A stretch of 64,000 nt of DNA from Pseudomonadota bacterium (GTDB lineage: Bacteria > Pseudomonadota > Gammaproteobacteria > Burkholderiales > JACQAP01): NCBI GenBank assembly GCA_038040175.1, contig JBBPIT010000012.1:443-64442 (forward strand), read 5' to 3'. Numbering within the stretch: the first letter of the stretch is position 1; each line of letters starts with the position of its first letter. The translations under genes and the position numbers were made by a program. Shown in pieces: positions 44,128-63,424 of this stretch. The notes under the pieces are model-generated. The model was not told where the DNA came from, made no database searches, and saw nothing but the letters and a program-made list of their open reading frames with translations.

Positions 44128-44180
44128 CACAGAACGCTGGGGAAAGGCCATCGAAAGCTATAAAGTATAGGCCTGACTCC
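44128..44180 (+). mobile_element. Right end only of a RAYT-derived element; left border of the island
   Basis: GAACGCTGGGGAAAGGCCATCGAAAGCTATAAAGTATAGGCCTGACTCC matches the right ends at 57061 and 62558. Confidence 0.85.
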
Positions 44181-44326
44181 TCAATCCCCACAGCAAGCTC
44201 AGCATCCTGTTCAGTGACGGGTCGCGATGGTCTCTTTTCCGGTTTCTTGGAGGTCAGGCTTGGCTAATTGCAGTTGGATGTTGAATCCACCAGTCTTTTC
44301 TCAATCTGGGAACCTGCGACAAAGCT

Positions 44327-44626
44327 TTACATCTCCCGCCCGGCCTCGTGCGTGACCTTTTGCACAGGAGAGAGCAGGTATTCCATCACCGTACGGCTGC
44401 CGAGATTCACTTCGGAGGAGACGAGCATGCCGGCTGAGACCCGGAATTGTTTACCGTCGCGTTCGAGGTAAGGCGAATCCAGCGCCACCAGCGTGCGGAA
44501 CCCCGAAGGCGGCATGACGTGTTCGCGGGTATCTTTGCGGTCGCGCTCGCGCGTGTCGGGCAGTTCCGCCGCATCGGGGCTGATGGTTTCGACGTGGCCG
44601 TTGACCATGCCGTACTTGTTGAACGG
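44327..44626 (-). pseudogene. HlyD type I secretion adaptor, 3' fragment
   Basis: PFNKYGMVNGHVETISPDA...AGM...EVNLGSRTVMEYLLSPV; 5' part absent. Confidence 0.8.
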
Positions 44627-44718
44627 CCATCTGGTTGCCGACCTGAAGAAGCTTTCGCACCAAAGTATCTTTATGCACACTGCAGGCCTGACGCACTTCC
44701 CCTCAGTCTGTTGTTCCT

Positions 44719-45267
44719 TCACGCCTTAATTTTTCGGATAAGCCGAAATAGCTCAGCTTGGTATTGTGCATCCTGAAGCGCGTCGTGACTTCCTTTGCGC
44801 GTAGGGTGAAGAGCCAAGGCGATTTGACTTGATCGCGTCTGATCCCAGTCGGTGTGCGCGGTGCCCATGTAGAGCGATTTGACGTCAAGAGCGGAAAAGC
44901 CGAATGGGTTCTCGCCTAGATAGCGATGAAAGTAGTAGTTCACGAAAGACCAATCGAATCCAGCATTGAACCCGACGAATATCGGCATTCCGCCCACTCC
45001 ACTAATACGCTGGACCCAGTCGCGGAACTGATGCAAGGCCTCTGCAGGTGCAAGACCATCGCGCTCGAGTCTGTCGAGTGACAGTCCAGTGACCTCCAGT
45101 GCTTTGGGATCCGCGTGGCGAGTCGTAGGCTTGAGTTCACATGAAAAAGTCTGCGTCTCATTGTCGACATTGCACGCCCCAATCGTGAGAAGGCTGTACT
45201 CACCAGGGATAGGTCCGGCAGTTTCGACATCTACCGATATGAAGACTTCCCGCCGTTTTGACATCAT
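44719..45267 (-). CDS. cap18: DEDDh 3'-5' exonuclease, CBASS Cap18-like
   Basis: SVDVET, FNAGFDW, HDALQDA; last gene of the CBASS operon. Confidence 0.8.
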   Translation of the reverse strand: MMSKRREVFISVDVETAGPIPGEYSLLTIGACNVDNETQTFSCELKPTTRHADPKALEVTGLSLDRLERDGLAPAEALHQFRDWVQRISGVGGMPIFVGFNAGFDWSFVNYYFHRYLGENPFGFSALDVKSLYMGTAHTDWDQTRSSQIALALHPTRKGSHDALQDAQYQAELFRLIRKIKA

Positions 45268-46430
45268 GGGATGAGCGGCTCCGTCGGTACCAGAGGGGGA
45301 CGGTTTTTGATGGCTCCCCAGTGCTCCCGAAAAGCCCTACGCCGTTCTTCGACCGTCCCGATTGTTTTCCACCGATGTCCCGAGAGAGAATGGATATCGA
45401 ACGGGAGATCGGTCCCTTCCTTCGCGAGAAGCATGGTTGGCAGGCCCCGACCTAGCGCATAGCCCAATTCCAAGAAGCAATTGGGGCGGACACCCGTAAT
45501 GTCGGCGAGAACCACCCTGCTGCGATGCAGTTTGGCGAATATCTCTTGATCTATACGGGAGTATTCGTACGCTTGTTTTCCATCCACGACCGTTAATTTG
45601 TACCCCAACTCCCCTTCGATAATGGGTTGAATCACCGTGTCGAAAAAATTCTGCACGTCGGCATAGTCCGCGTGGGTCGGATTAAGCAGACGAATCACGA
45701 AAGCCCTCGGAGGCGATAGACCTTCAAGCAGTTCGATAAGATCCCTCGCTCCGTCTGGAGCCGACTTGTGGGCAGTAAATTCGATCCGATTGAGCCAACC
45801 ATGAGAAGGGACATTACCCTCTGTTTGAAAAAGACGCTGCGCATAGTTGGAGGACAAACCGAAATCGAAGAGCCGTTGCGCACCGGTGATGGGCGGACCA
45901 AGCTTGAGATTTAAGGGAATGACTGGCTTGCCTGCGTCGTGATAAAGGTTAGCTAAGAAAAGTACCCCTTCCCCTCCGCCAAGGGCGATTAGAAGATCGC
46001 CGCTGCGGGCCTGCACTTCCATCCGCTTGCTGTTCATGTTCCAGTGAGCCGCGTTCTCAATTTGCACCAAATCAGACCCACGAAGGGCATCCCATACTTG
46101 AGCGTACTGCTCAGGAATCTGCTCCTCATTCTTATGATGCTTGACCGCGATGACCAATGGACCCGGCGCATCGGCAGGCCGGATCGGAAGATTCTTGTGA
46201 ATAGTGTCCCAAACCAACCAGTCGAAGCAGATAGGTTGATTGTCGGGAGAGCGAAATTTCTCCGCATCGACCGGAATCACAAACGTTGCTCCCTTCCGGA
46301 GCAATTCTTTGACGAGAACTTCTATCAGGGTCCGAGCGCGGCTAACCTCTTCAGCGGTTGCAGTTGCCACATCAGTTGAGATGCTGCCCGCGATGTGAAT
46401 CCGGCGTCCGAAGAGTGGCGATCTGGCCAT
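45264..46430 (-). CDS. Putative CBASS effector: SLOG domain + nucleoside 2-deoxyribosyltransferase/TIR-like domain
   Basis: N-half IHIAGS..KRMEVQARSGDLLIALGGGEG..GKPVIPL; C-half VVLADITGVRPNCFLELGYALG..LPFD. Confidence 0.7.
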   Translation of the reverse strand: MARSPLFGRRIHIAGSISTDVATATAEEVSRARTLIEVLVKELLRKGATFVIPVDAEKFRSPDNQPICFDWLVWDTIHKNLPIRPADAPGPLVIAVKHHKNEEQIPEQYAQVWDALRGSDLVQIENAAHWNMNSKRMEVQARSGDLLIALGGGEGVLFLANLYHDAGKPVIPLNLKLGPPITGAQRLFDFGLSSNYAQRLFQTEGNVPSHGWLNRIEFTAHKSAPDGARDLIELLEGLSPPRAFVIRLLNPTHADYADVQNFFDTVIQPIIEGELGYKLTVVDGKQAYEYSRIDQEIFAKLHRSRVVLADITGVRPNCFLELGYALGRGLPTMLLAKEGTDLPFDIHSLSGHRWKTIGTVEERRRAFREHWGAIKNRPPLVPTEPLIP

Positions 46431-47326
46431 TACTTATCCTCCATCACCGGGGACGGCTGCAACGATTTGGCGGCTTCGTGGAGATGCTTGAAACTGAGCG
46501 GATGTTTGGGAAAAGCCTTCGCAAGCGCCGCGGGATAAAGGCGCGTGCGGATGTCAGAGAACGTCCAGCCAGGCCTGTTGCTATGCGGTCCCGTGGCAGC
46601 GACCAAGTCAGAAATCTGCTGCGATGTGAGGGACAGTCCCGCCAAATCCATGCTGAACAATGCACGCCGTTCGTCATCGTTCGGCCGACGAAATTCCTCG
46701 ATAATTGCTGCGCGCCGCTGAAGTGCAGCATCCAATACCGAGCGGCGGTTGGTGCACAGGAAAACCACGATCCTTCCGCCGAAGCGCCGCAGGTCATCGA
46801 TACCCTGAATCAAAGTGTTGACCGCTACTTTGTCCTCATGGTGGCTGTGCTCCTGCGAGCGGGTCGCGGCGAGTGAGTCGCCCTCATCGATCACCAAGAA
46901 GGCGCGGCGAGTTTTCCCAGCTGATTGGGCAACCTCATGAAATGCTTGCGCAAGCAGCGTTCCCATTTCGCCCACCTTGCCACTACCCCGTACGCGGTTG
47001 CTGAGCTTGAAGAGCATGGAATCCTCTGCACCAGATTCCTTTGCTAAGCGGTTGGCTATGCATTCGGCAGTCGCGGTCTTCCCGGTGCCCACATCGCCGT
47101 AAAAAATGGCCAGCGGATACTGTTCTGCTACGAGGTCGCAGAGCAGTATTTTTTCTCCATGGTGCTTTTTACTCCAGCCTGCCAAGTCATTGAGATTGAG
47201 GAGCAGATGGAGTTGATCACGGATCTTCTCGAAGCGTGAGTCGAACCCGAGCAAAGTCTTTTGCCGTGTCGCAAGGCTGCTATCGGGCAGAGGAGTCTTT
47301 GCGTCGAATATATTGGGTTGGCTCAC
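46430..47326 (-). CDS. cap6: TRIP13/Pch2-like AAA+ ATPase
   Basis: Walker A GDVGTGKT, Walker B FLVIDEGD, VNTLIQGID, LDAALQRR; follows HORMA gene. Confidence 0.88.
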   Translation of the reverse strand: MSQPNIFDAKTPLPDSSLATRQKTLLGFDSRFEKIRDQLHLLLNLNDLAGWSKKHHGEKILLCDLVAEQYPLAIFYGDVGTGKTATAECIANRLAKESGAEDSMLFKLSNRVRGSGKVGEMGTLLAQAFHEVAQSAGKTRRAFLVIDEGDSLAATRSQEHSHHEDKVAVNTLIQGIDDLRRFGGRIVVFLCTNRRSVLDAALQRRAAIIEEFRRPNDDERRALFSMDLAGLSLTSQQISDLVAATGPHSNRPGWTFSDIRTRLYPAALAKAFPKHPLSFKHLHEAAKSLQPSPVMEDK

Positions 47327-47817
47327 TTGGTGAAGTCCTTGCGCTGCATTCCGTATCCATTGCTTACGTAGTCTCGACCGGCTTGTACTTTCAGGGACGA
47401 ATGGTTCGTATCAGCGGTCGTGGGAACCCAACTGAGGCACAGTTTGTCGGCCATCTTGGCCTTGGCAGCCGCGTCATATGCGCCCGTATGAAACAAGACA
47501 ATGCGCAGGTCGGGTTGCGCGACACGGGGCCAGAGCACACCACCAGGGCGGCCCATGACCAACTCTCCAGAATCCGTTTTGACCTCGAAGCGAGTCGCCT
47601 TCTGCTCGACACCCGCACTAAACAATGTCACGTCTACTGCCCTCAGGTAGCCGTTTATGGCGAGTAGCTCTACGTCGTGTCCCCATTCACGCGCCTTATC
47701 TTCAGTTATAGCGCCTGTACTACTGGCAATCATCACCAAGTCTGTAGTGACCCTTCGCATTACGATCTCAACATCGGCGATCGAGTAGGTTTCAGTTTCG
47801 GTGACCGAGTAACTCAT
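47323..47817 (-). CDS. cap7: Bacterial HORMA-domain protein
   Basis: MSYSVTETETYS..VMRRVTTDL, LAINGYL, C-terminal RDYVSNGYGMQRK; between CD-NTase and ATPase. Confidence 0.82.
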   Translation of the reverse strand: MSYSVTETETYSIADVEIVMRRVTTDLVMIASSTGAITEDKAREWGHDVELLAINGYLRAVDVTLFSAGVEQKATRFEVKTDSGELVMGRPGGVLWPRVAQPDLRIVLFHTGAYDAAAKAKMADKLCLSWVPTTADTNHSSLKVQAGRDYVSNGYGMQRKDFTK

Positions 47818-47820
47818 CCT

Positions 47821-48765
47821 TCAATCCTCCACCTTAAAGCGCGGACCAAATAGTTCTTTCCAGATTTCAATATCGCCTTCCGCCGATGCATGATGTGCCG
47901 TTTCCCAGGCTTCCTGCGCTGCCTTGATGATTTCCTGTCGTTCATTCTCGGAAATTCGGCTTGCCACGTTGTTGCTGCTACAAACCGGATCCAGGATAAC
48001 CACAGGATCGGTAAACTTCGACAGCACGATGCCATTCTCGGGAAACGAAATCACCTCCTTCAAACCTGACTGGGCTATATAGAGCAGGAAACCACGAAAG
48101 CGCTTCTCAAGCGAATCCTCCTTGCCGTTCTTGGCAAGAACGTGAGCCATGATTAACTCAATGGTGAAGGACTTGAGCGACTTAAGCTCAACACGGTTAC
48201 GCCACTTTTTTGCAAGGCGGACCAACGTGCGGAAGTCAGCATCCACTGCTTTTCGATCGCGCACGAATTTGATCTGGCAAGGCGCACAAGTCTGCATCCT
48301 GGTACCGTCTTGGATGTCGTATTGCCAGCCATAGCCAGGCTTGGAGGGATCTTCGATTACAGGAACAATATCGACGCTCAAGCCAGAACCCACGAACGTA
48401 ACCGTCGCGGCTTTTCGTTGGATCTCGAAGTCTTCCACCGCCTTTGTGGGATAAAGCTTGATAAGCAGGCTATAAATCGTCTCGCTCAGTCCGCTCAAGG
48501 TCTCCTTGTCAACATTGCGCCCCGAAATATAGAAAACGACATCCACGTCGACCGGGTCCTCGGAGGTCTTGCGGAGAATTGTGTATTTCGCAAATGACCC
48601 GGCCTTCACCACTTTCGTGATCTTGATCTCATTCTGCTCACGCAATGTCTTGCTCAATTCACTGACTAGTCGATCTACCTGTTCGTGATATTCCTTGCGC
48701 TTGTCATCTGGCAACCGCAGAACATTGCTGTCGTAGTACCGAACTTCAGTATTGTTCAACGGCAT
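47821..48765 (-). CDS. cGAS/DncV-like nucleotidyltransferase (CdnC-like CD-NTase)
   Basis: AGSFAKYTIL..DVDVVFY, SVDIVPV, LVRLAKKW, KSFTIEL, VILDPV..NNV, WKELFGPRF. Confidence 0.92.
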   Translation of the reverse strand: MPLNNTEVRYYDSNVLRLPDDKRKEYHEQVDRLVSELSKTLREQNEIKITKVVKAGSFAKYTILRKTSEDPVDVDVVFYISGRNVDKETLSGLSETIYSLLIKLYPTKAVEDFEIQRKAATVTFVGSGLSVDIVPVIEDPSKPGYGWQYDIQDGTRMQTCAPCQIKFVRDRKAVDADFRTLVRLAKKWRNRVELKSLKSFTIELIMAHVLAKNGKEDSLEKRFRGFLLYIAQSGLKEVISFPENGIVLSKFTDPVVILDPVCSSNNVASRISENERQEIIKAAQEAWETAHHASAEGDIEIWKELFGPRFKVED

Positions 48766-49200: not shown

Positions 49201-49524
49201 ATGCCTACAGCGCTGGGCGATAAGATTCGACAGATACGGAAAGGGAAGGAATTGACGCTGGAAAAGCTGGCGGAGCTTTCCGACTCAAGCAAAAGCTATA
49301 TCTGGGAGCTCGAAAACAAGAATATGCCTAGGCCATCGGCCGAAAAGATTGGAAAGATTGCTGCCGTCCTAGGTGTCACGCCCGAATTCCTTTTAGATAC
49401 ATCCGAAGACTCCCCAACCCCCAATGTTGTCGATGAGGCGTTCTATCGCAAGTACCGGAAGATGGATCCAGAGGTAAAAGCGAAAATCCGATCAATCGTC
49501 GAGGTCTGGGATAAAGAAAAATGA
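49201..49524 (+). CDS. capH: XRE helix-turn-helix repressor, CapH-like
   Basis: LTLEKLAELSDSSKSYIWELEN..RPSAEKI; divergent from CBASS and paired with a metallopeptidase. Confidence 0.8.
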   Translation: MPTALGDKIRQIRKGKELTLEKLAELSDSSKSYIWELENKNMPRPSAEKIGKIAAVLGVTPEFLLDTSEDSPTPNVVDEAFYRKYRKMDPEVKAKIRSIVEVWDKEK

Positions 49525-50438
49525 CGGAGGGGCTGTCGCCGAAGCGATGGGCGATCGACATTTCCCAGGTCCTCAACAAGGTACTGGGGGCTGAGCACTT
49601 CCCGATTAATGTTGAGCAGGTAGCAAAAGAGTTTTCGCGCCAACGTTTTCCCGACGACCCAATTACACTGGTCGCGGGGGAAGTGCTGCCCCGGTTTGAC
49701 GGCGCACTCGTGCGGGCACCGTCCGGCAAGAAGGGCTGGGGAATTATCTACAACAAGGCAATACAGTCACCCGGCCGCGTTAATTTCACCTTGGCGCATG
49801 AGTTTGGACACTACCTACTCCACCGCCTGATTTACCCGAACGGTCCCCAGTGTGGTGAGCAGGACGTTGTGAGATGGGACTCAGAATACGGTCAAATTGA
49901 GTATCAGGCGAACGTCTTTGCATCTTATCTTCTGATGCCTCTTGACGACGTCAGGCGTCAAATTGATCCTCGGATCGAGGCCGATTTGGAAAAACTTGGG
50001 GCTTGCGCGAAACGCTATAACGTGTCGCTGATCGCAGCAACTCTCAAGTGGCTGGAGTACACGGAGCGTCGGGCAGTTATCGTAGTTTCGCGTGATGGAT
50101 TTATCCTCTGGGCGCGTTCCAGTACCACAGCGTTAAAGACCGGGGCATTCTTCCGCACGTCCGGGGACCCTATCCCTATTCCGACAGGATCGCTTGCTGC
50201 GCAAGGAACTGGCCTTGACTCGATCAAAGCTGGTCTGGAGTTCCAGCCAGGAACATGGTTCAAGGAGGAACCATGTCGAGAAATGGCGGTGTTCTCGGAG
50301 CAATATGAATTTACGATTTCGCTGCTTCTACTTCCAAAAGACGCCGCCACATCACGATTCAACCAAAATCGTGAAGAAGATGAGGAAGAGCAGGACGATC
50401 TGCTTGATCGAATCAAAAAAAACCATGGATTGAGCTAA
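49521..50438 (+). CDS. capP: ImmA/IrrE family zinc metallopeptidase, CapP-like
   Basis: RVNFTLAHEFGHY (HExxH), EYQANVFASYLLMP, RYNVSLIA; ATGA overlap with capH. Confidence 0.82.
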   Translation: MTEGLSPKRWAIDISQVLNKVLGAEHFPINVEQVAKEFSRQRFPDDPITLVAGEVLPRFDGALVRAPSGKKGWGIIYNKAIQSPGRVNFTLAHEFGHYLLHRLIYPNGPQCGEQDVVRWDSEYGQIEYQANVFASYLLMPLDDVRRQIDPRIEADLEKLGACAKRYNVSLIAATLKWLEYTERRAVIVVSRDGFILWARSSTTALKTGAFFRTSGDPIPIPTGSLAAQGTGLDSIKAGLEFQPGTWFKEEPCREMAVFSEQYEFTISLLLLPKDAATSRFNQNREEDEEEQDDLLDRIKKNHGLS

Positions 50439-50560: not shown

Positions 50561-50859
50561 TGGGTCAGCCCTGCATAATTGCGTAATGTTCATGTATTCT
50601 CTTCTTCATGGCTCGCAAACCTCGTCTGCACGTTTCTGGTGGTCCAAAAGCCGGCAAACGGCGCAGGCGCGCGCACTCGTCCCCTGGCTTGCGGTCCGGT
50701 TTCGTTCGTGCACGCTTGCGAAAGTCGCCGAACATTTCTCGCGCTCCCCTTCCACTCTAAGCCATCTGGTTGCCAACCTTGAGAAGCTTTCGCATAGTTC
50801 CGGCGAACCCGCCGATGCTCTGCGAAAACATCTTTATGCAATTCTGCAGGCCTGACCCC
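50561..50859 (+). mobile_element. Non-autonomous RAYT-type element, second repeat subtype
   Basis: TGGGTCAGCCCTGCATAATTGCGTAA and inverted TTATGCAATTCTGCAGGCCTGACCCC; interior encodes an HTH-like tail (ARALVPWLA..TLAKVAEHFSRSPSTLSH). Confidence 0.7.
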
Positions 50860-51338
50860 ATTTTTCCGAGTAGACCGGCGCGACCGCTGTAATGTCTTGC
50901 GACCTTCGCGCGGCAGCGGGCGCGAATCCATCCAGGAACACGCGCACCCTGCTTTATCAAGCGATCAAAGGGCACGGATTTGGTAGGTGACTTGCCCGCT
51001 GCGCGGCGAGTCTCCATGCGTCGCATTTCCCGTCCCCGGTGCCTCCTTGGGTCGTCAGCCTCAGTGAACTCCCACGGTTCAACCTTGTGCCCTCGCGTTC
51101 GGATTTCAAAGTCGGGCCACTGATTGCGGGCCTCAACAAGACGCACAGCGAGGGCGCGCCGCCCTTTTGCGAACTGCGCCGCAGCCTATGCCTCAGTGAT
51201 GAAATCGACGCCGGCCTGATTGAACAGGTCGGCGTTGCCTAGTAAGTGCATGAGCGCACGAGCGCGTCGCAGCATCTCGCTCGGTTTCTGCCACTGCTCC
51301 AGCGCAGCACGCTGCTGCCTGATATCCTTTTTCGCCAA
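50860..51338 (-). pseudogene. Hypothetical protein (possible PD-(D/E)xK fold) with in-frame TAG and 3' truncation
   Basis: ORFs 51186-51509 and 50757-51146 are in the same frame: FITEA*AAAQFA..WPDFEI..EFTEAD; TTG start with GGGAG SD. Confidence 0.55.
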
Positions 51339-51401
51339 GCGCACGTTGCTCCCTTTTCGTACCCTATCCAGTCCGTAAGAATTCGGGCAACATTGCAACC
51401 C

Positions 51402-52172
51402 GTGAAGGAAACATTTGAGCGGAAACCCGACCTCCCTCCTTTTCGGATAGACCTCGCCGATCTCGAAGTGCTGTGCGAGAAGATTCGGAAGCAATTTCCC
51501 GAGAAGCATGATCTCGACATCTACCTAAAGATCGGCACTCGGTCCCTTCACGCCTATAGCCTAAAAGAATTACGCACCGCGCCGGAGTTACCAAAAACCG
51601 TGTATCACTTCTATATACGGTTGCACTCGTGGGAACCGCCACGCAACTGCACGATATACGCATACCAGCAGCAATTCGGACATCCATGGGTCCTCGTAGA
51701 GGGGGACGATGAAACGTGGTGCGCAGGGATGGTTGATTTGGTCCAAACGTTCACACGAAACCACCGACGCTGGTACAGCACGTTGCGCGGATGGCCCCTG
51801 TTGACTGTGGCGTTCTTTTCCCCGGCCGTGCTTGGCATTCTCGAATGGACGGGAACAATCTCTAAATCCGCGTACCTCGCGAGCATGGCGCCGTGGGGCA
51901 TGTTTCTGTTCCTGTGGTTCGCCCGCCCGTATCTTTTACCGGCGGGTACGCTCGTGATAAGGCGGGAAGACAGCTTTTGGAAGCGCCACGTCCTTGAATT
52001 AACCCTTTGGGTCACGATCATTTCCCTTGTCGTAATGAGCGCCCAATTTGTCATTACACTCAAGAGCGAACCAATATCTCTGCAAAACCCTCAAGCACAG
52101 CCGATAACCCCTGTTCCTGCAGATGCAGTGCGTCCACCTTCGAAAGCGCCGGCCTCAGAGTCAGCGAGTTGA
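51402..52172 (+). CDS. Hypothetical membrane protein (soluble N-domain, about 3 C-terminal TM segments)
   Basis: Open frame with hydrophobic segments; start uncertain. Confidence 0.6.
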   Translation: MKETFERKPDLPPFRIDLADLEVLCEKIRKQFPEKHDLDIYLKIGTRSLHAYSLKELRTAPELPKTVYHFYIRLHSWEPPRNCTIYAYQQQFGHPWVLVEGDDETWCAGMVDLVQTFTRNHRRWYSTLRGWPLLTVAFFSPAVLGILEWTGTISKSAYLASMAPWGMFLFLWFARPYLLPAGTLVIRREDSFWKRHVLELTLWVTIISLVVMSAQFVITLKSEPISLQNPQAQPITPVPADAVRPPSKAPASESAS

Positions 52173-52208
52173 AATTCGCGCCGCCCGCTCAGGATCAACG
52201 CCGGCTAG

Positions 52209-52259
52209 GGTTGCGTGCCCGGCCAGTCGCCGGCACCGGGCCAGATGCCCGGGGCGCCG
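52209..52259 (+). repeat. 51-bp direct repeat, copy A (double hairpin)
   Basis: About 90% identical to 53382-53433. Confidence 0.85.
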
Positions 52260-52262
52260 CGC

Positions 52263-52586
52263 TCATGGTTGCCCTTTCTGCGCGTCGCGCTCTTCCGTAA
52301 CGAGCCATTCTTGCAAGACATACACCCAGCCGCGCGCAGTCTCAAGCTCTTCGAGTCCACGAAGTAGAAACCCGGCATGCCCTATCGCGAGCATGCGGGG
52401 CTCGATTATGGGCTTCAACAGATCGCCCTTCGGAACGTGTAACGATGCCATGCGCCGCATAGGGCCGCCCGTCTCCCGTGGGCATTCGTAGGTAGTTAGC
52501 TCGCCCACCAAGGCCGCTTTTGCCTCTATCTCATTGTCCGATAAAAGCCTTCCACGGTCGTACTTGGATACCACGGCGAAGTGCAT
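52263..52586 (-). CDS. Small hypothetical protein with upstream LexA box
   Basis: 107-aa ORF (PIIEPRML..GFLLRGLE..QEWLV); SOS box 6 bp upstream. Confidence 0.7.
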   Translation of the reverse strand: MHFAVVSKYDRGRLLSDNEIEAKAALVGELTTYECPRETGGPMRRMASLHVPKGDLLKPIIEPRMLAIGHAGFLLRGLEELETARGWVYVLQEWLVTEERDAQKGQP

Positions 52587-52590
52587 GGGG

Positions 52591-52610
52591 TACTGGATAT
52601 AAAGACAGTC
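52591..52610. promoter_or_regulatory. LexA (SOS) box
   Basis: TACTGGATATAAAGACAGTC = CTG-N10-CAG with AT-rich core, the beta/gammaproteobacterial consensus. Confidence 0.75.
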
Positions 52611-52680
52611 GTACGCTCATACTAGCCGCAATCCCGAAACACTGACAAGATGCCCAAGTAGGCTTGACTTTCAAAACCGA

Positions 52681-53708: not shown

Positions 53709-56708
53709 ATGGCGAATTCTGAAATCTCGATCAATGACAAAATTGCGGACGTGTTCCGCGCGATTAACACCGATTGGCGCTTATACGATCAGGTTTCAAG
53801 TGAAAACACACACGGCCTCTTGAAGAAGAAGGCGTTGCGCCCGGACATCCTCATCATCGAACCGGGCGTTCCCCCGATCTGCCTAGAAACTGAATACGAG
53901 CCCGGCATGACGGTCGAGGCCGATGCTGCCAGTCGCCTCGGGGAAGTAGCAGTGAAGTCCGGGGGCACGATCCAGGCTGCTTTCGCGATAAAAATTCCCG
54001 ATAGGTTCAAGTTACTTCCGGCGCCGAAGCTGCTGACAGAACTACGAAAGGCGCAAGACTTCCAGTATTGCGTTCTCTCCGGCACCTCTCCCACGGACTA
54101 CGTGCGCTGGCCGGCAAGCGGGTATGTGCAAGGCTCTTTGGAACATCTGTTTGTTGCTTTGCAGGGGGCCGCCACTCCGCAAAGCGCAATTCAGAAAGGC
54201 GCCGATGCCTTGGAAGAGGGGGCTTCAGAAATCGCCGCCATCATCGATTCCATGGCGCACTCGCACCCGGGTCTGATTACTAAGATTTCCGCTGCCCTTA
54301 AGCAGGAGGGCAATCTACAAACTTTTCGAATGGCGGCCACAATTTTGATAAACGCGTTTTTATTTCAGGAGAACCTCGCCGGGCGCTCCGGGGGCCTTGA
54401 AGACGTAAGAAGTCTGGAAGAACTGGCAAACGATAGCGGAATGACGAAGATGGATGTCATTGCCGAATGGACAACAATTCTCAAAATAAACTACTGGCCA
54501 ATTTTCGGAATCGCGAGAAGTCTTCTGCAAGCCGTTCCTACTAACGTAGCAGCGGAAATACTCCAGAAGATGCATAACACAGCATCAGTGTTGCTCACCC
54601 TCGATCTCGGCAAAAGCTCCGATTTGTCAGGCGTCATTTTTCAGCGCTTGATTACGGATCGGCGTTTTTTAGCGACCTTCTACACCATGCCCGCGTCAGC
54701 GGCGCTTCTCAATGGCCTCGTGTTCAACAAGGTGGCATTAAACGGTAAACCTTGGTCCGACCCTTCTGTTACTAAACTGCGCATTGCAGATTTTGCCTGT
54801 GGGACAGGCTCTCTCCTCTGTGGTGCGTACAACGAAATCCGTAGACATCTTGAAATCAGCGGTATTTCTGCTCGCAACTTTCACGCTGCTTTCATTGAGT
54901 CTAGCCTGGTTGGTTGCGACGTAATGCCGTCTGCAACGCACATTACCGCATCTATGCTTTCCTCAGCGTTTCCAGAACAGCGCTACAAGCACACGAATAT
55001 CTTAACCCTGCCATTCGGAAGACAAACGGACGGGTCGGTTAGCCTCGGGGCGATTGAATTCCTTTCGACTCAAGGTGCGTTGTCAATCATTGAGACCGGC
55101 GCTTTGGGAATTGGAGCCAGTGGAGAAGCTAGCGCCGACCCTTGGGCGGTTATTGGGGGAACGGAGATAGCAGACGGAAGCTTTGATCTAGTCATTATGA
55201 ATCCGCCATTCACGCGCCTCACCGGAGGTGGCGGGAAAACGAATGAAATTCCTCTGCCGATGTTCGCCGCTTTCGGGAATCAAAAGGATGAGCAAGAGTT
55301 AATGTCGGCGCGGACGAAAAAGCTGACGGTCGGTTCGTGCGCACATGGGAACGCAGGCGAGGCGAGCATTTTTGTCCAGGTAGCTCATAACAAGGTACGG
55401 CACGGCGGTTCTCTCGCATTGGTACTACCGCTCACGTTTTTATCCGGCGCCGCTTGGGAAGACTGCAGGGAGCTGATCCGTAAAAATTACAGGGACATCG
55501 TCGTCGTAACCCTCGCAACCTCAAATAAGGGGGACTTTGCGTTTTCTGCTGACACAGGTGTCGGAGAATGCCTGTTGGTTGCGCGGCGAACTGAGAAGCC
55601 CGCGAAACATAAGCTCCCGCCGCCGGCAGAGCGGCTGACGAGCGTAAGTCTTAGAAGTAGGCCTTCGACGCCATTTGAAGGGACAGAAGTTGCACGACTT
55701 ATCCGCGACGCCGTCCAGACTGGGAACGTTGCCGGGCTTGAAGGCGGTCCGCTTGGTGGCACTCCGCTTGCCTTGGGTACTGTGCATATCGGCGAGATAC
55801 TGTCGGGCCCCTTAAGCGAAAAGGATCAATGGCCTCTTTTCCGAATTGCAGACCATTCTGTGGCACAAGTTGCCTATCAGCTTGTATCGCAGCAAAAGCT
55901 CTGGCTACCTGGGATGGCTACAAAGGCCGTGCAACAAATCAAGCTTAGTAGACTGGAAGAACTCGGCGAAGTTGGTCCGTATCACCTAGATATTACTGGC
56001 TCTACTATTTCGGGAGGCGCGCCGCGAGGACCGTTTGAAATCAAGCCTGTTCCTCCCGGCCACGCGCCTACGTATCCAGTTCTCTCTAGTCACGATGCTA
56101 CGCAGGAACGAACACTGGAAATTGTCCATGACGGCGAGGCGGTCCCGCGAGTGGGAAAAACTAGCACAGTGATTGAGGTGCTAAAAACGCGCAGAGAGAA
56201 AATCTGGGAAACGAGATCGCGGTTGCACGTCAACACGGATTTTCAATTCAACTCCCAAAGTCTGACATTCAGTCTGACGCCGGACCCTTCCTTGGGAGGT
56301 CGAGCATGGCCGACGTTCAAGATGAAGGACGCCGCTTACGACATTATCGCTTCGCTTTGGGCCAATTCAACACTCGGACTGCTGACCTATTGGTGGAGTG
56401 CTAACAAGGCGCAGGATGGGCGTGGGTCAATCACCACTACACAGATTTCGAAGTTCTACATTCTCGACCCTCGCAAACTCACTTCCGGGACACGGAAAAG
56501 CGCGGACAAGTTCTATACCTTCATCAAGGCCAAGCCGCTCCTGCCTGCGCATCAGCTAGCTAGCGACCCGGTGCGCGCGCAAATTGACGAATTTGTTCTA
56601 AAAGAGCTGCTGAAAGTTGACGCCGTAAATCTGGCACCGTTCACTATGATGATGGCGACGCTTCGTAAAAAACTCGGATCTGAGCCATCATTCAACGGCG
56701 GGAGGTGA
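53709..56708 (+). CDS. Single-chain restriction-modification enzyme (Type IIG-like: nuclease + N6-adenine MTase + TRD)
   Basis: N-terminal RPDILI..LETE, FYT.P, motif I ADFACGTGSLL, motif IV VIMNPPF; lower GC. Confidence 0.82.
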   Translation: MANSEISINDKIADVFRAINTDWRLYDQVSSENTHGLLKKKALRPDILIIEPGVPPICLETEYEPGMTVEADAASRLGEVAVKSGGTIQAAFAIKIPDRFKLLPAPKLLTELRKAQDFQYCVLSGTSPTDYVRWPASGYVQGSLEHLFVALQGAATPQSAIQKGADALEEGASEIAAIIDSMAHSHPGLITKISAALKQEGNLQTFRMAATILINAFLFQENLAGRSGGLEDVRSLEELANDSGMTKMDVIAEWTTILKINYWPIFGIARSLLQAVPTNVAAEILQKMHNTASVLLTLDLGKSSDLSGVIFQRLITDRRFLATFYTMPASAALLNGLVFNKVALNGKPWSDPSVTKLRIADFACGTGSLLCGAYNEIRRHLEISGISARNFHAAFIESSLVGCDVMPSATHITASMLSSAFPEQRYKHTNILTLPFGRQTDGSVSLGAIEFLSTQGALSIIETGALGIGASGEASADPWAVIGGTEIADGSFDLVIMNPPFTRLTGGGGKTNEIPLPMFAAFGNQKDEQELMSARTKKLTVGSCAHGNAGEASIFVQVAHNKVRHGGSLALVLPLTFLSGAAWEDCRELIRKNYRDIVVVTLATSNKGDFAFSADTGVGECLLVARRTEKPAKHKLPPPAERLTSVSLRSRPSTPFEGTEVARLIRDAVQTGNVAGLEGGPLGGTPLALGTVHIGEILSGPLSEKDQWPLFRIADHSVAQVAYQLVSQQKLWLPGMATKAVQQIKLSRLEELGEVGPYHLDITGSTISGGAPRGPFEIKPVPPGHAPTYPVLSSHDATQERTLEIVHDGEAVPRVGKTSTVIEVLKTRREKIWETRSRLHVNTDFQFNSQSLTFSLTPDPSLGGRAWPTFKMKDAAYDIIASLWANSTLGLLTYWWSANKAQDGRGSITTTQISKFYILDPRKLTSGTRKSADKFYTFIKAKPLLPAHQLASDPVRAQIDEFVLKELLKVDAVNLAPFTMMMATLRKKLGSEPSFNGGR

Positions 56709-56786: not shown

Positions 56787-57061
56787 AGGGTCAGCCCTAT
56801 ACTTTATAGCTGATCGGGCGTAGCCTCACGCAATGACCCGACCGCTACGTTTGGAGTTTGCCGGGGCGCGTTACCACCTCACCGCCCATGGCGACCGCCA
56901 AGAGCCGCTCTTCAAGACGAGCGAGCGGTCATACAGTTGCTATGACTTGGCTTATCGCAATTGCCCGCCCACCGGGCAGATTTGTGTTGAGATCGAGTCC
57001 GCTTCTCTCCGCGGAACGCTGGGGAAGGTCGTCGAAAGCTATAAAGTATAGGCCAGACCCC
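56787..57061 (+). mobile_element. Internally deleted RAYT element (MITE-like)
   Basis: IRs 56787-56809 and 57039-57061; begins MTRPLRLEFAGARYHLTAHGDRQEPLF like the full gene at 58609. Confidence 0.9.
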
Positions 57062-57070
57062 TTGAGTCAC

Positions 57071-57343
57071 TTCGACACCACCGGCTTCGATCGCCGTCTG
57101 ATACCGGTAGAAGGTGTCGCGTGACAGACCCATGATCTTGCAGCCCCTCGACACGTTGCCCAGTTCCTGCGCCAGGTTCAACAACCCCAGTTTGTTCTTG
57201 ATGATGCGTGCGCTACCATGTTCCACGGCAGGGTTCCCTTTCCAATTCGTTGGGTTTCGATAGTTGGCTTCGCAACCTCTATCAAAACGGGAAATCCTGC
57301 CCTTTGCAACTCGGCAGTGTCAGATCAGATCGGAACTACTACA
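57071..57343 (-). mobile_element. IS481 family remnant (left end + transposase N-terminus)
   Basis: Terminal TGTAGTAGTT..., IIKNKLGLLNLAQELGNVSRGCKIMGLSRDTFYRY. Confidence 0.85.
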
Positions 57344-57608
57344 GATTAAGGCAGGCGCTAAGGGCGTCCAAGTCCCTAGCCCAGCTCTTCAGATCCTGTA
57401 ACGTGACGGGTTCAGGAACAGGCTTGAGCTTATCGTTGTCTCTCAAGTATTAGAGAAGCATGTCGTTTCGCTTTGGTGGTCGGTAGCCCCAAGTTCGCCT
57501 CCGTCGCCAGAAGCGAAAGCCCCTCCCACATGATGTCAGAGGGGCTCTTGTGGCTAGGCGTGTCGAGTCAAACTCCCGTAAAGGCCAATCGACTCGAGCA
57601 CGACACCC

Positions 57609-58094
57609 CTACTGTTTCTCCAACACTGCAACGTTGTTGATCGGCCGCCCCTGGGCATCGGTCCCCTTGTAGGTGACCGTCACTGTCTTGCCATCGCTCG
57701 AGACCTTCCTCGTCAGGGTCTGCACGACCTTTCCGCCCTTCTTGTCGGTCCGCTCGGTCGTGTTGGCATCGAGGCGCTTCAGCGACACGGTGTCAGCCAT
57801 CCGTGAACCGGTAATCGGATGGTCCTTGCCGTCGTACTGCGCCGTGTACTCGACGCGGATAGGCGTGTCGTCACCGCGTACCCCGTCGGCCGTGAGTTTT
57901 TCTCTCTCTCCCGCTGCCTCGATTTTTACGGTGAGACTCTTTGGCGCCGGACCGGGGCTGTACGTCGATTTCGCCACATTGAGTTTCCACGTGCCGGCCA
58001 TCGGGTCGGCGGCCTGTGCCGGCCCCTGGTTACCCAAGAGAATCAACCCTACCATCACGGTTGCGAGAGTTAGTCGTCGTGCGAATGCCTGCAT
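57609..58094 (-). CDS. Secreted beta-rich (lipocalin-like) hypothetical protein
   Basis: SD AAGGAG, signal peptide, AGTWKLNVAKS, YDGKDHP, VSSDGKTVTV. Confidence 0.75.
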   Translation of the reverse strand: MQAFARRLTLATVMVGLILLGNQGPAQAADPMAGTWKLNVAKSTYSPGPAPKSLTVKIEAAGEREKLTADGVRGDDTPIRVEYTAQYDGKDHPITGSRMADTVSLKRLDANTTERTDKKGGKVVQTLTRKVSSDGKTVTVTYKGTDAQGRPINNVAVLEKQ

Positions 58095-58439
58095 TGGGTT
58101 CTCCTTTGTTGATCGCTGTTGGTTATGGTGGCCTGCAAAGTCTACTCTCCGGCCTTGAACGACCCGACCCAGCGGGCTATTCACAACTAGCTGCTGAGTC
58201 CGCTACGGTGCCATTCCGAAGAAGGCGTTTCAAGTGAGTTGCAGCTTTCAGTAGAACAAGCCTAAAGACAATCCCCGTCGCAAAAGTAAGCGACAAACGG
58301 TTCGAGAGTCTCATCATTATATTAATTATTAGATCTCCTTGGGCGCCGTAGTAAATAAATAGGGATCTAAAACGCCCCTTTTCGCCGACGATCAATCTAT
58401 CGCTGAGCCGGCGAAAAGTCAATTGCCATCAATCGCACA

Positions 58440-58550
58440 CATGGGTTGACCTTCACCGACGACCATGAGATTGAATCAGCCGTGCGCCACTACGTTCCGT
58501 TCTACAACGGCACTCGGCTACACTCATCGCTTAACTACGTACCGCCAGCG
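58440..58550 (+). pseudogene. IS3 family integrase C-terminal fragment
   Basis: F.....ESAVRHYVPFYNGTRLHSSLNYVPP. Confidence 0.7.
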
Positions 58551-58562
58551 AAGAGCAGCAAA

Positions 58563-59552
58563 AGGGTCAGGCCTATACTTTATAGCCGATCGGGCGTAGC
58601 CTTAAGGAATGACCCGACCGCTACGTCTGGAGTTTGCCGGGGCACTCTACCACCTCACCGCCCGGGGTGATCGCCAGCAGCCGCTCTTCGAGGACGACGA
58701 CGATCGGCTCGTCTTCCTCGATTTGCTCGCCAAGGAAGTCCTCCAGCAAGGCTGGGTGCTCTACGCCTTCTGCCTGATGGGCAATCACTATCATCTGTTG
58801 CTCGAAACCCCCGAGCCCAATCTGGTCCAGGGCATGCGCCGTCTCAACGGGGTCTATACCCAGGCCTTCAACCGCCGCCACAATCGGGTGGGCCCCGTGC
58901 TGCAGGGCCGCTACCAGTCGATCCTGGTCGACAAGGACACCTATCTCCGGGAGCTGTGCCGCCATGTGGTCTTGAACCCGGTGCGCGCCCGGATGGTGGC
59001 CGCGGTGGAGCACTGGCATTGGAGCAGCTACCTTCCCACCGCAGGCAGGATGCCCTGCCCGCCCTGGTTAGACGCCCCTGCCGTGCTCGGCTGGTTCGGT
59101 GAAGGCGCGGCCGCGCGCAGGGCCTACGAGCGCTTCGTGGCCCAGGGGCTCAAACAGCCCTCTCCCTGGGAGACGCTCAAGGGCCAGGTCTATCTTGGGT
59201 CGGAGGCGTTCCACGCCCAGATGAAGAAGCGTCTATCGGGGAAAACCCCAAAGGGCGTCTCGCGAGGCCAGCTCAACCCGGTACGGCGTAGCGCGCAGGC
59301 GGTGCTGCGCACCGTGGCGGACGCCTACGGCATCAAGCCGGCCGCGGCGCTAGCGCGTCACAGTGGACCCGCGTTCAAGCAGACGGTCTATCTGTTGCGC
59401 CGGCGGGCCAATCTGAGTCTGCGGGAAGTCGCCGCGATGGCGGGGGTGACGATCGGACGGGTGGCGCAGATCCAGAGTGAGATCGAATCGCTCCCGACCG
59501 ATAAGAAACTGGAACGGATCGTCGCCAGACTATAAAGTATAGGCCTGACCCC
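58563..59552 (+). mobile_element. Complete RAYT-like element with 23-bp terminal inverted repeats
   Basis: AGGGTCAGGCCTATACTTTATAG (58563-58585) and CTATAAAGTATAGGCCTGACCCC (59530-59552). Confidence 0.88.
58609..59535 (+). CDS. HUH/Y1 tyrosine transposase (IS200/RAYT superfamily) with C-terminal HTH
   Basis: GALYHLTARG, AFCLMGNHYHLL (HUH), GRYQS, NPVRA, WSSY; usual Tyr before NPVRA reads His here (RHVVLNP). Confidence 0.9.
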   Translation: MTRPLRLEFAGALYHLTARGDRQQPLFEDDDDRLVFLDLLAKEVLQQGWVLYAFCLMGNHYHLLLETPEPNLVQGMRRLNGVYTQAFNRRHNRVGPVLQGRYQSILVDKDTYLRELCRHVVLNPVRARMVAAVEHWHWSSYLPTAGRMPCPPWLDAPAVLGWFGEGAAARRAYERFVAQGLKQPSPWETLKGQVYLGSEAFHAQMKKRLSGKTPKGVSRGQLNPVRRSAQAVLRTVADAYGIKPAAALARHSGPAFKQTVYLLRRRANLSLREVAAMAGVTIGRVAQIQSEIESLPTDKKLERIVARL

Positions 59553-59669
59553 ATGCATGTATGACCCCATGCATGCATGATGGGAACGAGATTGCACAGC
59601 TCGCCGTCCGTAATGGCTTTAGATAAATCTGTCCCTCTTTTCGGTATTGCAATTACAGAGGACTCTCGC

Positions 59670-60049: not shown

Positions 60050-61852
60050 CTATTGCACGGTGGCCGTCAGGCCCGTGGGCGGGTTGATGAACGCCAGAGA
60101 CGACATGACATCGACCGCCTTGCCGGTCGTGGTTTTGCCGGCGAGGGCGGGGACGGATCTGCCGCCATTCTTGATGGCGTTGGCGGTATCGGCGAAGGTG
60201 TACTGCGGGTTGAAGGCGCGCAGCATCGCGGCGAGCCCCGCGACCTCGGGCGTGGCCATGGAGGTACCGTTTTCGATTTGATAGGTGTTGGTCGTGAGCG
60301 TCAAGGTATTGATCGAGAAGCGGGTAATTCCAATACCGAAATCGCCGGGCGTTGTCGCTCCGGTCGCGAGCTTGAAGCCGACCAGGCAACTAATTATCCC
60401 CGCGCAGCCGCTGATATCCAGGGAAACGGGGAATACCGAGCCGCTGGTATGGACAGGACCGACAATACCGTCCTGTAGGGCGCCTGCGCCGAAGGGGTTA
60501 ACACCGCTCGGATCCACCCCCACGACAAAACTGTCCCCGCTATTGGCAAGATTGACCGCGGCACTAAAGTTCAAGGTCACGGCGTTGACTGCGGAGGTAT
60601 TGAACCCTTTGGCCGCCGTGTCGTTCAGGTTGGGCCCATACTTGGTAATAAGAAAATTTGCGGGATCGACTAGAAAATCGTTGCCGCCGTTGAGCACATG
60701 AGTCCAGCCGTTGCTGATCGTCCAGGCAGTCAGAGGGTCGGTCGTCGTCGCAACCGTCCCCGCAAAGGTGCTTAAGATGTTTGTCCCCGGTGCGCCGACG
60801 TCGACGCTTGTCGCCCCCCAGTTCGATAAACTCGCGAGCGCGTAGTTCTGATCGAGCGCGGCGACGCAAACCAGGTTCGGCTGGGTGAAGTTGCAGGGAT
60901 AACTGGCGCCGCCTGCGGCGTCATTGTTGTTGGTCTCGTTGCCTGCCGCCACCACCACCACGAGGTCGCTATTTTGCGCGTTGCTGATGGCGTCGCTGAA
61001 GGCCTGGTCGAAGGGCACGCTGCCGGCGAGGCTCATGTTGATCACCTTGGCGCCGTTGGTCACTGCGAAGCTGATGCCTTGGGTAATGGTCGCCGTCGTC
61101 CCGCTACCCGTGGCATTCAGCACGCGCACCGCCATGATGCTGGCCTTCTGGCACACGCCAGTGGTGCCCGTGCCGTTGTTACCCACGGCGCCGATGATGC
61201 CGGCGACATGCGTGCCGTGGCCGTTAAGATCCATCGGGTCGGTGTCGTTGTCGACAAAGTCATGGCCGTGGTTCGGGCTGCCGTTCCACATGTTGGCGGC
61301 GAGGTCTTCCTGGGTGTAGTTGACGCCGGTATCCAAAACCGCCACCACGACGCTGCTGCAGTCGGTGATGTGGTCCCAGGCCTTCTCGATGCCCATGTCA
61401 TCGCCCGCCGTGCCGGCCTTGGGCGTATAAGTGCCGGTGGTGATGGTCTGGCCGGTGTTCTTGAACGCCCAGAGCTGGCCGTATTGCGTGTCGTTTGGCA
61501 CCGCTGTGGCGTGATAGATGTAGTTGGGCTGGACGTATTCGACGTTCGGGTCGTTCCGGTAGGCCGTGAGCGCCGTCTCCACCGTCTGGCCGGCGCCGAT
61601 CTTGACCTGCGCCCAGCCGGGCTGATTCAGGTTGGCGAGGACGGAGTGTCCCCGGGCCGCCATGGTCGCCATGCGCTCCTGCATGCTGGCCGTGGGTTTG
61701 AACTTCACGAGCACCTCGCCCGGCACGTACTGCGACGCGGCCGCGCCGGCGAGATTGGGCAACGCGAAGGGAGCAGCGGCAACCTGAGCGTACAGCGTCA
61801 AGGCAGCACCGACGAGCGCGGCCAGGGCCATCGAGCGCAACGGTGTTTTCAT
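60050..61852 (-). CDS. Secreted S8 subtilase
   Basis: VAVLDTG (Asp), GHGTHVAG (His), AAGN, GTSMATP (Ser). Confidence 0.95.
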   Translation of the reverse strand: MKTPLRSMALAALVGAALTLYAQVAAAPFALPNLAGAAASQYVPGEVLVKFKPTASMQERMATMAARGHSVLANLNQPGWAQVKIGAGQTVETALTAYRNDPNVEYVQPNYIYHATAVPNDTQYGQLWAFKNTGQTITTGTYTPKAGTAGDDMGIEKAWDHITDCSSVVVAVLDTGVNYTQEDLAANMWNGSPNHGHDFVDNDTDPMDLNGHGTHVAGIIGAVGNNGTGTTGVCQKASIMAVRVLNATGSGTTATITQGISFAVTNGAKVINMSLAGSVPFDQAFSDAISNAQNSDLVVVVAAGNETNNNDAAGGASYPCNFTQPNLVCVAALDQNYALASLSNWGATSVDVGAPGTNILSTFAGTVATTTDPLTAWTISNGWTHVLNGGNDFLVDPANFLITKYGPNLNDTAAKGFNTSAVNAVTLNFSAAVNLANSGDSFVVGVDPSGVNPFGAGALQDGIVGPVHTSGSVFPVSLDISGCAGIISCLVGFKLATGATTPGDFGIGITRFSINTLTLTTNTYQIENGTSMATPEVAGLAAMLRAFNPQYTFADTANAIKNGGRSVPALAGKTTTGKAVDVMSSLAFINPPTGLTATVQ

Positions 61853-62245: not shown

Positions 62246-62339
62246 GAACCCTCCCAAGTTCAGCGAACTGGGCAGGGTACGCTCGTAGCCATTTCTTCGT
62301 CAAATCCCACCGTCGAAACAAAGTACCCCTAGCGAGTAA

Positions 62340-62558
62340 GGGGTCAGGCCTATACTTTATAGCCGATCGGGCGTAGCCTCACGCAATGACCCGACCGCTA
62401 CGTCTGGAGTTCGCCGGGGCGCTCTACCACCTCACCGCCCGCGGGGACCGCTAGGAGCCGCTCTTCAAGACGAGCGAGTGGTCATGAGATTGAGTCCGCT
62501 TCTCTTCACAGAACGCTAGCGAAGGCGGTCGAAAGCTATGCAGTATAGGCCTGACCCC
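62340..62558 (+). mobile_element. Internally deleted RAYT element (MITE-like)
   Basis: IRs 62340-62362 and 62536-62558; same 5' transposase fragment, here with a TAG. Confidence 0.9.
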
Positions 62559-62575
62559 ATGCACGAGAAGTTGTC

Positions 62576-63370
62576 TTAGAACCTGTATTTCACTTCCAAC
62601 CCGTATTCCCGCGTCTCGTTTTCCGGTTCAAACAGGCCGAAACCGAAACCGATAGGCACGATATCCGAATCCTCGATACTCCAGTAATGCATCCAAGGGC
62701 CGAATGCCCATGAACCATTCTCTGCTATCACCGAAAGGCGATAACCGTATCCTTTGTCTTGCTTATTGGTCGCATCGCTAAACCCGATACCGGTATCGGT
62801 GAGCTGCGATATCTGTCTTCCTCTAATGAAGTAATCATACTCAATGGTGGGGGCAATCACCCACTGACCGTTGACATTGATGCGTGAGGTCAACCCTAGA
62901 GGGGCGTACAAATAGTTGGAATAGCGCTGATAACCAACCGCGCCGGTGGAAGTCGTGCCTCTCATATCATTGTAGAGATAGCGGTAGCCGAGCCCCGCAA
63001 AAGGCGAAAGGGAAACCCCACTGTGCGGCAAAAAATCTTTGCCGAAGACCCCTCGCGTTTCGAGAATCCAATCCGGAACCGAATTCTTCGTACCGGAGCC
63101 CTCGTATTTGAGCGAGCCGTTCGCGTATCGCCCGTCAACCTTGAAAAACCACTGACCGGCGCCGGTGTAGGTATAGGCGCCGGTGACGCCCACTCTGGCC
63201 CCCCAGATCTTTACCCCTGCACTCGGCTCCTCATAGCGATAGTCCGACAGCTGCCCCCCGACCTCCCAGCCGGGCCGGGTAACCAGGGGATCGGCCGCTA
63301 CGCTTGTTTGTGCCGATGCGACTGGGGAAATGGCAACGAGAATTGCTGCAGTGATGAGTGCTTTACTCAT
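62576..63370 (-). CDS. Outer-membrane beta-barrel protein
   Basis: Signal peptide, aromatic amphipathic strands, C-terminal EVKYRF. Confidence 0.85.
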   Translation of the reverse strand: MSKALITAAILVAISPVASAQTSVAADPLVTRPGWEVGGQLSDYRYEEPSAGVKIWGARVGVTGAYTYTGAGQWFFKVDGRYANGSLKYEGSGTKNSVPDWILETRGVFGKDFLPHSGVSLSPFAGLGYRYLYNDMRGTTSTGAVGYQRYSNYLYAPLGLTSRINVNGQWVIAPTIEYDYFIRGRQISQLTDTGIGFSDATNKQDKGYGYRLSVIAENGSWAFGPWMHYWSIEDSDIVPIGFGFGLFEPENETREYGLEVKYRF

Positions 63371-63412
63371 GTGGGCTCCCTTACCTAAGGACCGGCGCAG
63401 AAATGAATCAAT

Positions 63413-63424
63413 GGGGTCAGGCCT
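63413..63424 (+). repeat. Short copy of the island terminal repeat; right border
   Basis: GGGGTCAGGCCT. Confidence 0.7.

Follow-up and report, generated by a model that had tools for sequence, protein, structure and literature searches.

A class of RAYT-like genes enclosed by terminal inverted repeats has been named TIRYT, and the unit formed by such a gene and its repeats TIRtron; many TIRYT ends fit the consensus GGGGWSAS, and ends are also found singly, as dimers or in clusters (Di Nocera et al. 2013, PMC3733652). In the classification of Quentin et al. (2018, PMC6006769), the TIRYTs are subclass 2.1 of the TnpA-REP proteins and carry a DnaA-C-like or helix-turn-helix (HTH) tail, and the catalytic tyrosine of class-2 Y1 proteins lies in the context Y---NP. 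These two papers were the only ones in which a literature search found the term TIRYT, and the parts of them covered here state no transposition mechanism, target or biological role. In this study, we describe TIRYT elements in a stretch of 64,000 nt ("the window") from contig JBBPIT010000012.1 of the Pseudomonadota assembly GCA_038040175.1, a metagenome-assembled genome of 129 contigs (G000; its contigs are given as C numbers). The elements lie in an island between the lytic transglycosylase gene slt and phoX, which was compared at the level of species and metagenome contigs, not of strains. The identity of the elements, their genome-wide spread, their persistence at this locus and a tyrosine-to-histidine change in the resident enzyme are established here; capture of genes at the element ends is unproven. 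The two flanking genes and the TIRYT-derived features between them, which belong to two related families (F1 and F2), are the following.

43451..44062, plus strand: slt, lytic transglycosylase gene, left flank (Pfam SLT, 1.7e-28); homology to four sister genomes ends at 44060-44127
44128..44180, plus strand: F1 TIRYT 3' end fragment, with its terminus at 44180 and an internal cut at 44128 (sequence reading, 23-mer match)
44627..44704, plus strand: F2 TIRYT 3' end fragment, joined to a fragment of hlyD (alignment)
50561..50859, plus strand: F2 internal-deletion derivative resembling a miniature inverted-repeat transposable element (MITE), of which one part matches each end of the 1-kb F2 elements (L020, L021 and L022)
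56787..57061, plus strand: F1 MITE-like derivative, 87% identical to nt 1-135 of the full element, both ends read
58563..59552, plus strand: full F1 TIRYT element of 990 bp, with 23-bp terminal inverted repeats GGGGTCAGGCCTATACTTTATAG around a 308-aa open reading frame (ORF)
58609..59535, plus strand: ORF P0001, 308 aa, with an HUH motif, a C-terminal HTH and His119 at the catalytic tyrosine position
59553..59582, plus strand: "stutter", a tandem duplication of flank plus the last letters of the element end (sequence reading)
62340..62558, plus strand: F1 MITE-like derivative, 91% identical to nt 2-135 of the full element, ends read
63413..63424, plus strand: solo 12-nt TIRYT terminus (exact motif match)
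63725..64000, plus strand: start of phoX, right flank (Pfam PhoX, 3.5e-52, on the whole ORF taken from L013)

The lineage of the element at 58563-59552 was assigned to TIRYT/TIRtron because it combines a Y1 HUH gene, GGGGWSAS inverted ends and a DnaA-C-like tail, and on these sequence characters the elements of the island are members of this already described class. P0001 matched Pfam Y1_Tnp (6.6e-7), contains the HUH motif NHYHLL, and scored 69.2 bits (3.4e-19) against NCBIfam REP_Tyr_transpos, which is below the equivalog cut-off of 80. A profile built from 14 relatives matched E. coli TnpArep (4er8; E 0.0024) and, over positions 217-306, the C-terminal domains of DnaA (E 8.3e-5); the C-terminus of P0001 itself gave weak HTH_3 and Sigma70_r4 matches, and P0001 alone had no match among solved structures in a single-sequence search. 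TAL-effector chains that appeared in the profile search were taken as spurious low-complexity matches. The ends of the element are inverted over 23 bp, start with (G/A)GGGTCAG and fit the consensus GGGGWSAS. Whole 1-kb F2 elements, with ends GGGTCAGCCCTGCATAATTGC... and GGGGTCAGGCCTGCATAATTGCATAA, are present in G021, G015 and G045. In DNA folding, eight end sequences showed no greater stability than their shuffles (z -1.3 to +0.8), in agreement with the TIRYT definition, and subterminal hairpins were rejected on this basis.

As far as the covered parts of the two TIRYT papers describe the class, the likeness comprises a RAYT-like HUH Y1 gene set in terminal inverted repeats instead of REP hairpins, GGGGWSAS ends, a DnaA-C-like/HTH tail, and ends occurring as singles, dimers or clusters, while the G000 copy differs in carrying a histidine for the catalytic tyrosine. 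Internal-deletion MITEs, end stutters, long residence by a core gene and a position at the edges of variable segments go beyond the descriptions in those parts.

The 12-mer GGGGTCAGGCCT, searched with at most one mismatch, has eight matches in the window, all within 44169-63424; the mean in shuffled sequence was 0.39, and none of 100 shuffles reached eight. One full TIRYT copy, three MITE-like derivatives from the two families and three end fragments make up the TIRYT content of the island. An initial annotation of this DNA had described six elements or ends sharing one terminus, one of them with an intact Y1 gene, and had proposed that they may form an integron-like platform for gene capture. 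Motif count and sequence reading bear out the 12-mer terminus and all six intervals; 50561-50859, placed there with the others, belongs to the second family, and the F2 3' end at 44627-44704 had been overlooked. The Y1 ORF is indeed unbroken, but it has a histidine at the position of the catalytic tyrosine.

The repeats are spread over the genome in small clusters, and their supposed confinement to a single locus was overturned by genome-wide mapping. The 23-nt F1 end (at most 4 mismatches) gave 25 matches on 10 contigs of G000, 7 of them in the island, and a degenerate 11-mer common to all end families gave 47 matches on 19 contigs, against 11.5 expected from composition. Judged from the letters adjoining the 11-mer matches, the real ends number about 40 on about 15 contigs. 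G000 has about nine TIRYT-like genes with several end families, and the genes near its other TIRYT clusters are a mix of metabolic and accessory ones. Among 37 genomes of the genus, many have full F1 copies (70-92% identity), some of them at unrelated loci. Solo ends on C29 (10360-23055), C64 (119-8359) and C5 (105090-110972) face the same way within each cluster. In the C2-type family every solo end is a left end, suggesting that 5' fragments either survive longer than 3' fragments or are more numerous.

In four sister genomes, homology ends just past slt and restarts at phoX, and the intervening DNA, which includes genes for a secretin, a TPR protein, a di-haem oxidoreductase (DHOR) and a multicopper oxidase, is unlike in each. 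Comparison of the interval between species agreed with the variable locus foreseen by the initial annotation, the cargo being unlike in every species. Just upstream of phoX, F1 is present whole or as a fragment in G001, G005, G011, G023, G052 and the metagenome contig L132; in L139, a more distant contig, an F1-like element stands between slt and core genes further downstream. Since the identity of the element follows that of its flanks (G011: element 91.7%, flanks 85-92%; G001: element 83.6%, flanks 75-87%), F1 next to phoX has apparently been inherited vertically. The right end and phoX are separated by 11 nt in G052, by about 0.1 kb in G011, by 2 kb in G005 and by 4.2 kb in G000; one common F1/phoX junction position was rejected, as it does not hold for G000, G001 and G023.

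Two relatives (L030, contig C476 of G052, about 4937-4948; L132, 10944-10945) have at most 11 nt between the right end and the phoX start, and in these phoX may be transcribed from inside the F1 element.

Both F1 copies of G000 read RHVVLNP where 12 of the 14 aligned relatives have RY..LNP, and the two are also unique in changing a conserved His to Pro and a conserved Lys to Gln. Among metagenome matches, 62 had Y at the catalytic position and none had H; a further 19 fell outside the search pattern. With His119 in place of the catalytic tyrosine, the resident F1 enzyme looks inactive. The second F1 copy (C44:24444-25431) is 97.8% identical, has clean ends and also bears the histidine; it was either mobilised in trans by paralogues or copied in some other way. 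A DHOR gene adjoins F1 in three genomes, in varied arrangements (C44:25488-26921; L016, 15342-17048; L015, 16008-17411), and the C44 locus may be derived from the same ancestral island.

Several other known systems resemble the locus in part. It shares with RAYT/REPIN systems (Bertels and Rainey 2011; Bertels et al. 2017, PMC5581495) a Y1 gene flanked by inverted repeats, non-autonomous derivatives that are short and have two ends, and apparent vertical inheritance at one locus. It differs from them in that GTAG-tagged palindromes are lacking, copies number tens and not hundreds, the NCBIfam RAYT score of 69.2 stays under the cut-off of 80, and the whole gene is duplicated together with its ends and is also present at other loci in sister species. 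Classical RAYT genes are single-copy and vertically inherited; F1 is syntenic by phoX in at least six other genomes or contigs, but G000 has two F1 copies and some species have copies at other loci. With IS200/IS605 the elements have in common the HUH Y1 fold family (Pfam Y1_Tnp) and the lack of obvious target duplications; they differ in having terminal inverted repeats, no significant hairpins and, by the class definitions in the covered part of PMC6006769, a Y---NP and not a Y---Q context.

An integron likewise has a stable gene beside variable cargo punctuated by a repeated site; its IntI tyrosine recombinase and attI adjoin an array of promoterless cassettes that share one orientation and each end in a folded attC. 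Here no IntI-type recombinase was found among the scanned ORFs and no attC-like folded sites were found, the cargo consists of complete operons, located on either strand and provided with regulators of their own (capH/capP), and the repeats are transposon ends spread over the genome. ISCR and IS91 elements are HUH elements that punctuate accessory-gene arrays and are thought to move adjacent DNA; their enzymes are larger two-tyrosine rolling-circle proteins, and their ori and ter ends are without inverted repeats. No ORF of the island suggested such an element in general scans, no search having been aimed at the family. Defence hotspots are conserved core-gene pairs that hold differing defence or accessory systems in related genomes; slt-phoX differs from them in also keeping a resident Y1 element through speciation.

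Between the TIRYT features, the island contains the following genes and gene fragments.

44327..44626, minus strand: 3' fragment, 300 nt, of hlyD, type I secretion adaptor (TIGR01843, 4.8e-17, C-terminal part only)
44719..48765, minus strand: type III operon of the cyclic oligonucleotide-based antiphage signalling system (CBASS), with exonuclease effector, Cap17-like effector, TRIP13, HORMA and CD-NTase (Pfam)
49201..50438, plus strand: capH and capP, CBASS regulators (PADLOC capH 1.5e-29, capP 2.3e-68; Pfam HTH_3 and Peptidase_M78)
51246..56708, plus strand: unassigned ORFs, one protein with a YHYH domain and an Eco57I-like methyltransferase/restriction protein of 999 aa (domain scans)
57065..58562, no single strand: insertion-sequence (IS) debris and a secreted-protein ORF (ORF translations, Pfam)
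60050..61852, minus strand: S8 subtilase with a fervidolysin-like prodomain (Pfam Peptidase_S8, 1.5e-47)
62576..63370, minus strand: outer-membrane beta-barrel protein (OMP) gene (Pfam OMP_b-brl, 2.3e-4, below cut-off)

The GC content falls from about 0.62 outside the island to 0.52-0.58 across it. In line with the initial annotation, 38000-64000 contains no tRNA gene, and no integrase family was found among the island ORFs that were picked and scanned, small ORFs being only partly covered; no known RNA family reached its gathering score in 42000-64000. PADLOC recognised Effector, TRIP13, HORMA and Cyclase components in the CBASS operon (1e-76 to 1e-203). The operon has two putative effectors (44719-46430), a DEDDh exonuclease and a Cap17-like protein, the latter classed by PADLOC as a TIR effector. 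The HTH/M78 pair at 49201-50438, grouped in the proposed module split with the restriction-modification (RM) genes, is CapH/CapP and part of CBASS, and the HNH domain claimed for the RM module was not detected by domain scans of 51246-53382. Matches in the block 51246-56708 were Pfam Eco57I (1e-4, below cut-off), PADLOC MTase_II (1.7e-10), NCBIfam YHYH_alt, and weakly MAD2 and an Alw26I methyltransferase. The IS debris comprises an N-terminal HTH_29 fragment on the minus strand (Pfam, 4.1e-10), truncated at the MITE end, and a C-terminal rve fragment on the plus strand (rve_3 and rve_2, about 3e-4), which runs into the left end of the full element.

The hlyD fragment aligns to whole hlyD genes in G021, G015 and G045, and its junction with the F2 end recurs in G018 (L023) and G052 (L024). 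In G045 hlyD and F2 are adjacent, and in G021, G015 and G000 different inserts of 6-7 kb lie between them. A 1.18-kb insert in G052 (L024, contig C130, 3007-4182; compared with C19:48130-48158 of G000), flanked by the 9-nt direct repeat GCTGCGGCG, holds the hlyD-fragment/F2-end junction together with a small ORF for a secreted cupin-like protein and part of a RAYT-like gene.

Immediately beyond many TIRYT ends, 6-10 nt of flank and the first 4-21 nt of the terminus together form a unit that recurs two to five times. Such stutters were found at 20 of 47 TIRYT ends, compared with 8 of 762 control GGGTCA sites, and GGGGTCA is the partial terminus most often repeated in them. Besides 59553-59582 in the window, they occur at C44:24400-24443 and 25432-25470, C16:15100-15290 and 16265-16345, C2:34454-34505 and C22:25110-25230. 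A contig of another study has, at the position of 63413-63424, an 18-nt duplication of flank plus GGGGTC. The stutters may mark where the enzyme cuts and joins.

The same cargo with the same bounding ends was not found in a second context in 37 genus genomes, 401 order-level genomes and 80 CBASS-homologue loci, and no case of a module moving as a cassette was met. The subtilase block is 88% identical in G021, where it lies between the orthologues of C43:3269 and C43:3576 and no TIRYT ends were found around it. OMP homologues of 82-87% are present in five sister genomes in other chromosomal contexts, and those in G017, G048, G010 and G015 had no TIRYT ends. Homologues of the CBASS cyclase (69-85%) were found at 80 loci in many bacteria; none of the 80 had a TIRYT gene in the fetched flanks, and motif matches there numbered 5 in 1.43 Mb. 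The CBASS and RM blocks had no close DNA relatives in the 401 order-level genomes, of which 3 matched, G000 included, the other two over short pieces only. The initial annotation had expected module boundaries in relatives to fall at the repeats, its alternative being simple MITE accumulation with repeats throughout the genome. Some homology breakpoints do fall at element ends, but most borders in the relatives are without them and the repeats are genome-wide, so that its alternative holds in part. The capture platform itself is not upheld: no integrase was seen among the scanned ORFs, and the modules lie on both strands with their own regulators.

We consider it probable that the locus reflects ordinary TIRYT accumulation, with long residence and local spread in a hypervariable hotspot. 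The slt-phoX interval would then be a hypervariable accessory and defence island between core genes, in which TIRYT elements (a RAYT-like HUH Y1 gene with a DnaA-C-like HTH, in 23-26-bp inverted repeats starting GGGGTCAG) have long been resident and have left debris. F1 would have stood beside phoX since before the species split, and F1 and its sister family F2 would have left a full copy, non-autonomous derivatives and truncated ends between operons, probably by short-range transposition. Since the catalytic tyrosine is missing from the resident F1 protein, such transposition in G000 would depend on an active paralogue that works in trans. The cargo would be unrelated units with other arrival routes (CBASS with CapH/CapP, the methyltransferase/restriction block, IS debris, subtilase and OMP), and the elements would mark the gaps between modules because only there could they persist. 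Some junctions would be deletion scars: those at 44128 and 44627 fall inside elements and look like such scars, not like joining at termini. Homology to G011 ends at 44127-44129, as does a contig from another study's run.

Several observations weigh against simple accumulation. All six elements with readable polarity share one orientation, and the His119 element has nonetheless been duplicated to C44. The OMP homology begins no more than a few letters from the MITE end at 62558 and ends some 14 nt short of the solo terminus; the OMP gene of G013, located by the C22:25208 orthologue, is followed about 23 nt after its stop codon by an F2-like end, from another family than the ends beside the window's copy. 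In relatives, the sequences to the left and right of each MITE have different neighbours, the IS fragments are severed at TIRYT ends without a matching other half, and the other resident TIRYT loci (C16, C2 and hlyD-F2) also border variable or rearranged segments. Replication direction was rejected as the source of the co-orientation, as polarity bore no relation to local GC skew across 14 elements. A rival explanation, which we regard as unlikely, is that TIRYT ends are recombination junctions through which the island is built up and rearranged, with DNA added beside the ends of a resident, vertically kept element. Joining could proceed by Y1 catalysis, with active paralogues in trans, or by homologous recombination between dispersed copies sharing GGGGTCAGGCCT, and the flank of the resident element would then loosely resemble an integron attachment site. 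Variable cargo abuts the end of a resident element at four loci (F1-phoX, F2-hlyD, C16 and C2), the subtilase and OMP genes of sister species have other chromosomal surroundings, and the excess of stutters with its GGGGTCA hints at a defined cut-and-join position. However, no module was met twice with the same end pair, some junctions are internal to elements, and the resident enzyme is without its tyrosine. Neither a clean empty site nor a definable target site was found for the C44 copy or the sister-genome copies; moreover, the association gives no causal direction, since mobile elements of any kind gather in plastic regions. That the resident TIRYT elements serve as anchors for gene turnover, with foreign or relocated DNA repeatedly joined beside their GGGGTCAG termini, is likewise regarded as unlikely; such anchors would organise a defence and envelope island in an integron-like manner via single-strand HUH chemistry, and the stutters would be the footprint of joining.

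A composite-transposon arrangement, in which end pairs excise each module as a circle and move it as a cassette, would suit the layout, in which each module follows a right end and precedes the next left end, all in one orientation, and the recurrence of the hlyD-fragment/F2-end junction in at least three genomes and different contexts. It is very improbable, as homologues of the CBASS, subtilase and OMP genes occur elsewhere without such end pairs, the hlyD/F2 insert of G052 is flanked by its 9-nt direct repeat and not by TIRYT termini, and the only joint seen in reads (44661 to 50797, in one contig of depth 2.5) matches the contiguous hlyD/F2 form of other organisms and not an excision product. 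A further rival explanation is that the module order is partly an assembly artefact of misjoining across repeats. The genome is metagenome-assembled in 129 contigs, those of the likely source run break at each element because the elements are repeats, and a 97.8% identical second F1 copy exists on C44. Nevertheless, the MITE copies are about 10% apart and so distinguishable, a single contig of 14 kb from the source run reaches from slt to 56841, and contigs of two other studies, which cover 57.1-63.8 kb of the window and give no depth over 45.1-56.5 kb (contigs being unable to show absence), independently include the junctions of element end with subtilase and of MITE end, OMP, 12-mer and phoX upstream region. 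Sister genomes show similar arrays, and we regard a misassembled order as extremely unlikely.

The locus provides handles on the TIRYT class, namely a family kept by a core gene through speciation, a natural Tyr-to-His variant that has been copied, non-autonomous derivatives, and end duplications pointing to a cut site after GGGGTCA. If the ends do join new DNA, this would be a new route of defence-island building; if not, the locus is well-documented mobile-element debris marking a hypervariable hotspot.

Two further repeats were noted. At C43:3295-3545 of G000, where G021 holds the subtilase block, there is a unit some 250 bp long and bounded by inverted repeats of about 25 nt (CTCACCACGAAGGCACGAAG...), which is probably another MITE family. 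The window also has, at 42361-42432, a dispersed repeat some 70 nt long that has no relation to the TIRYT ends, with matches of 86-90% on at least six other contigs of G000 and also in G002 and G005.

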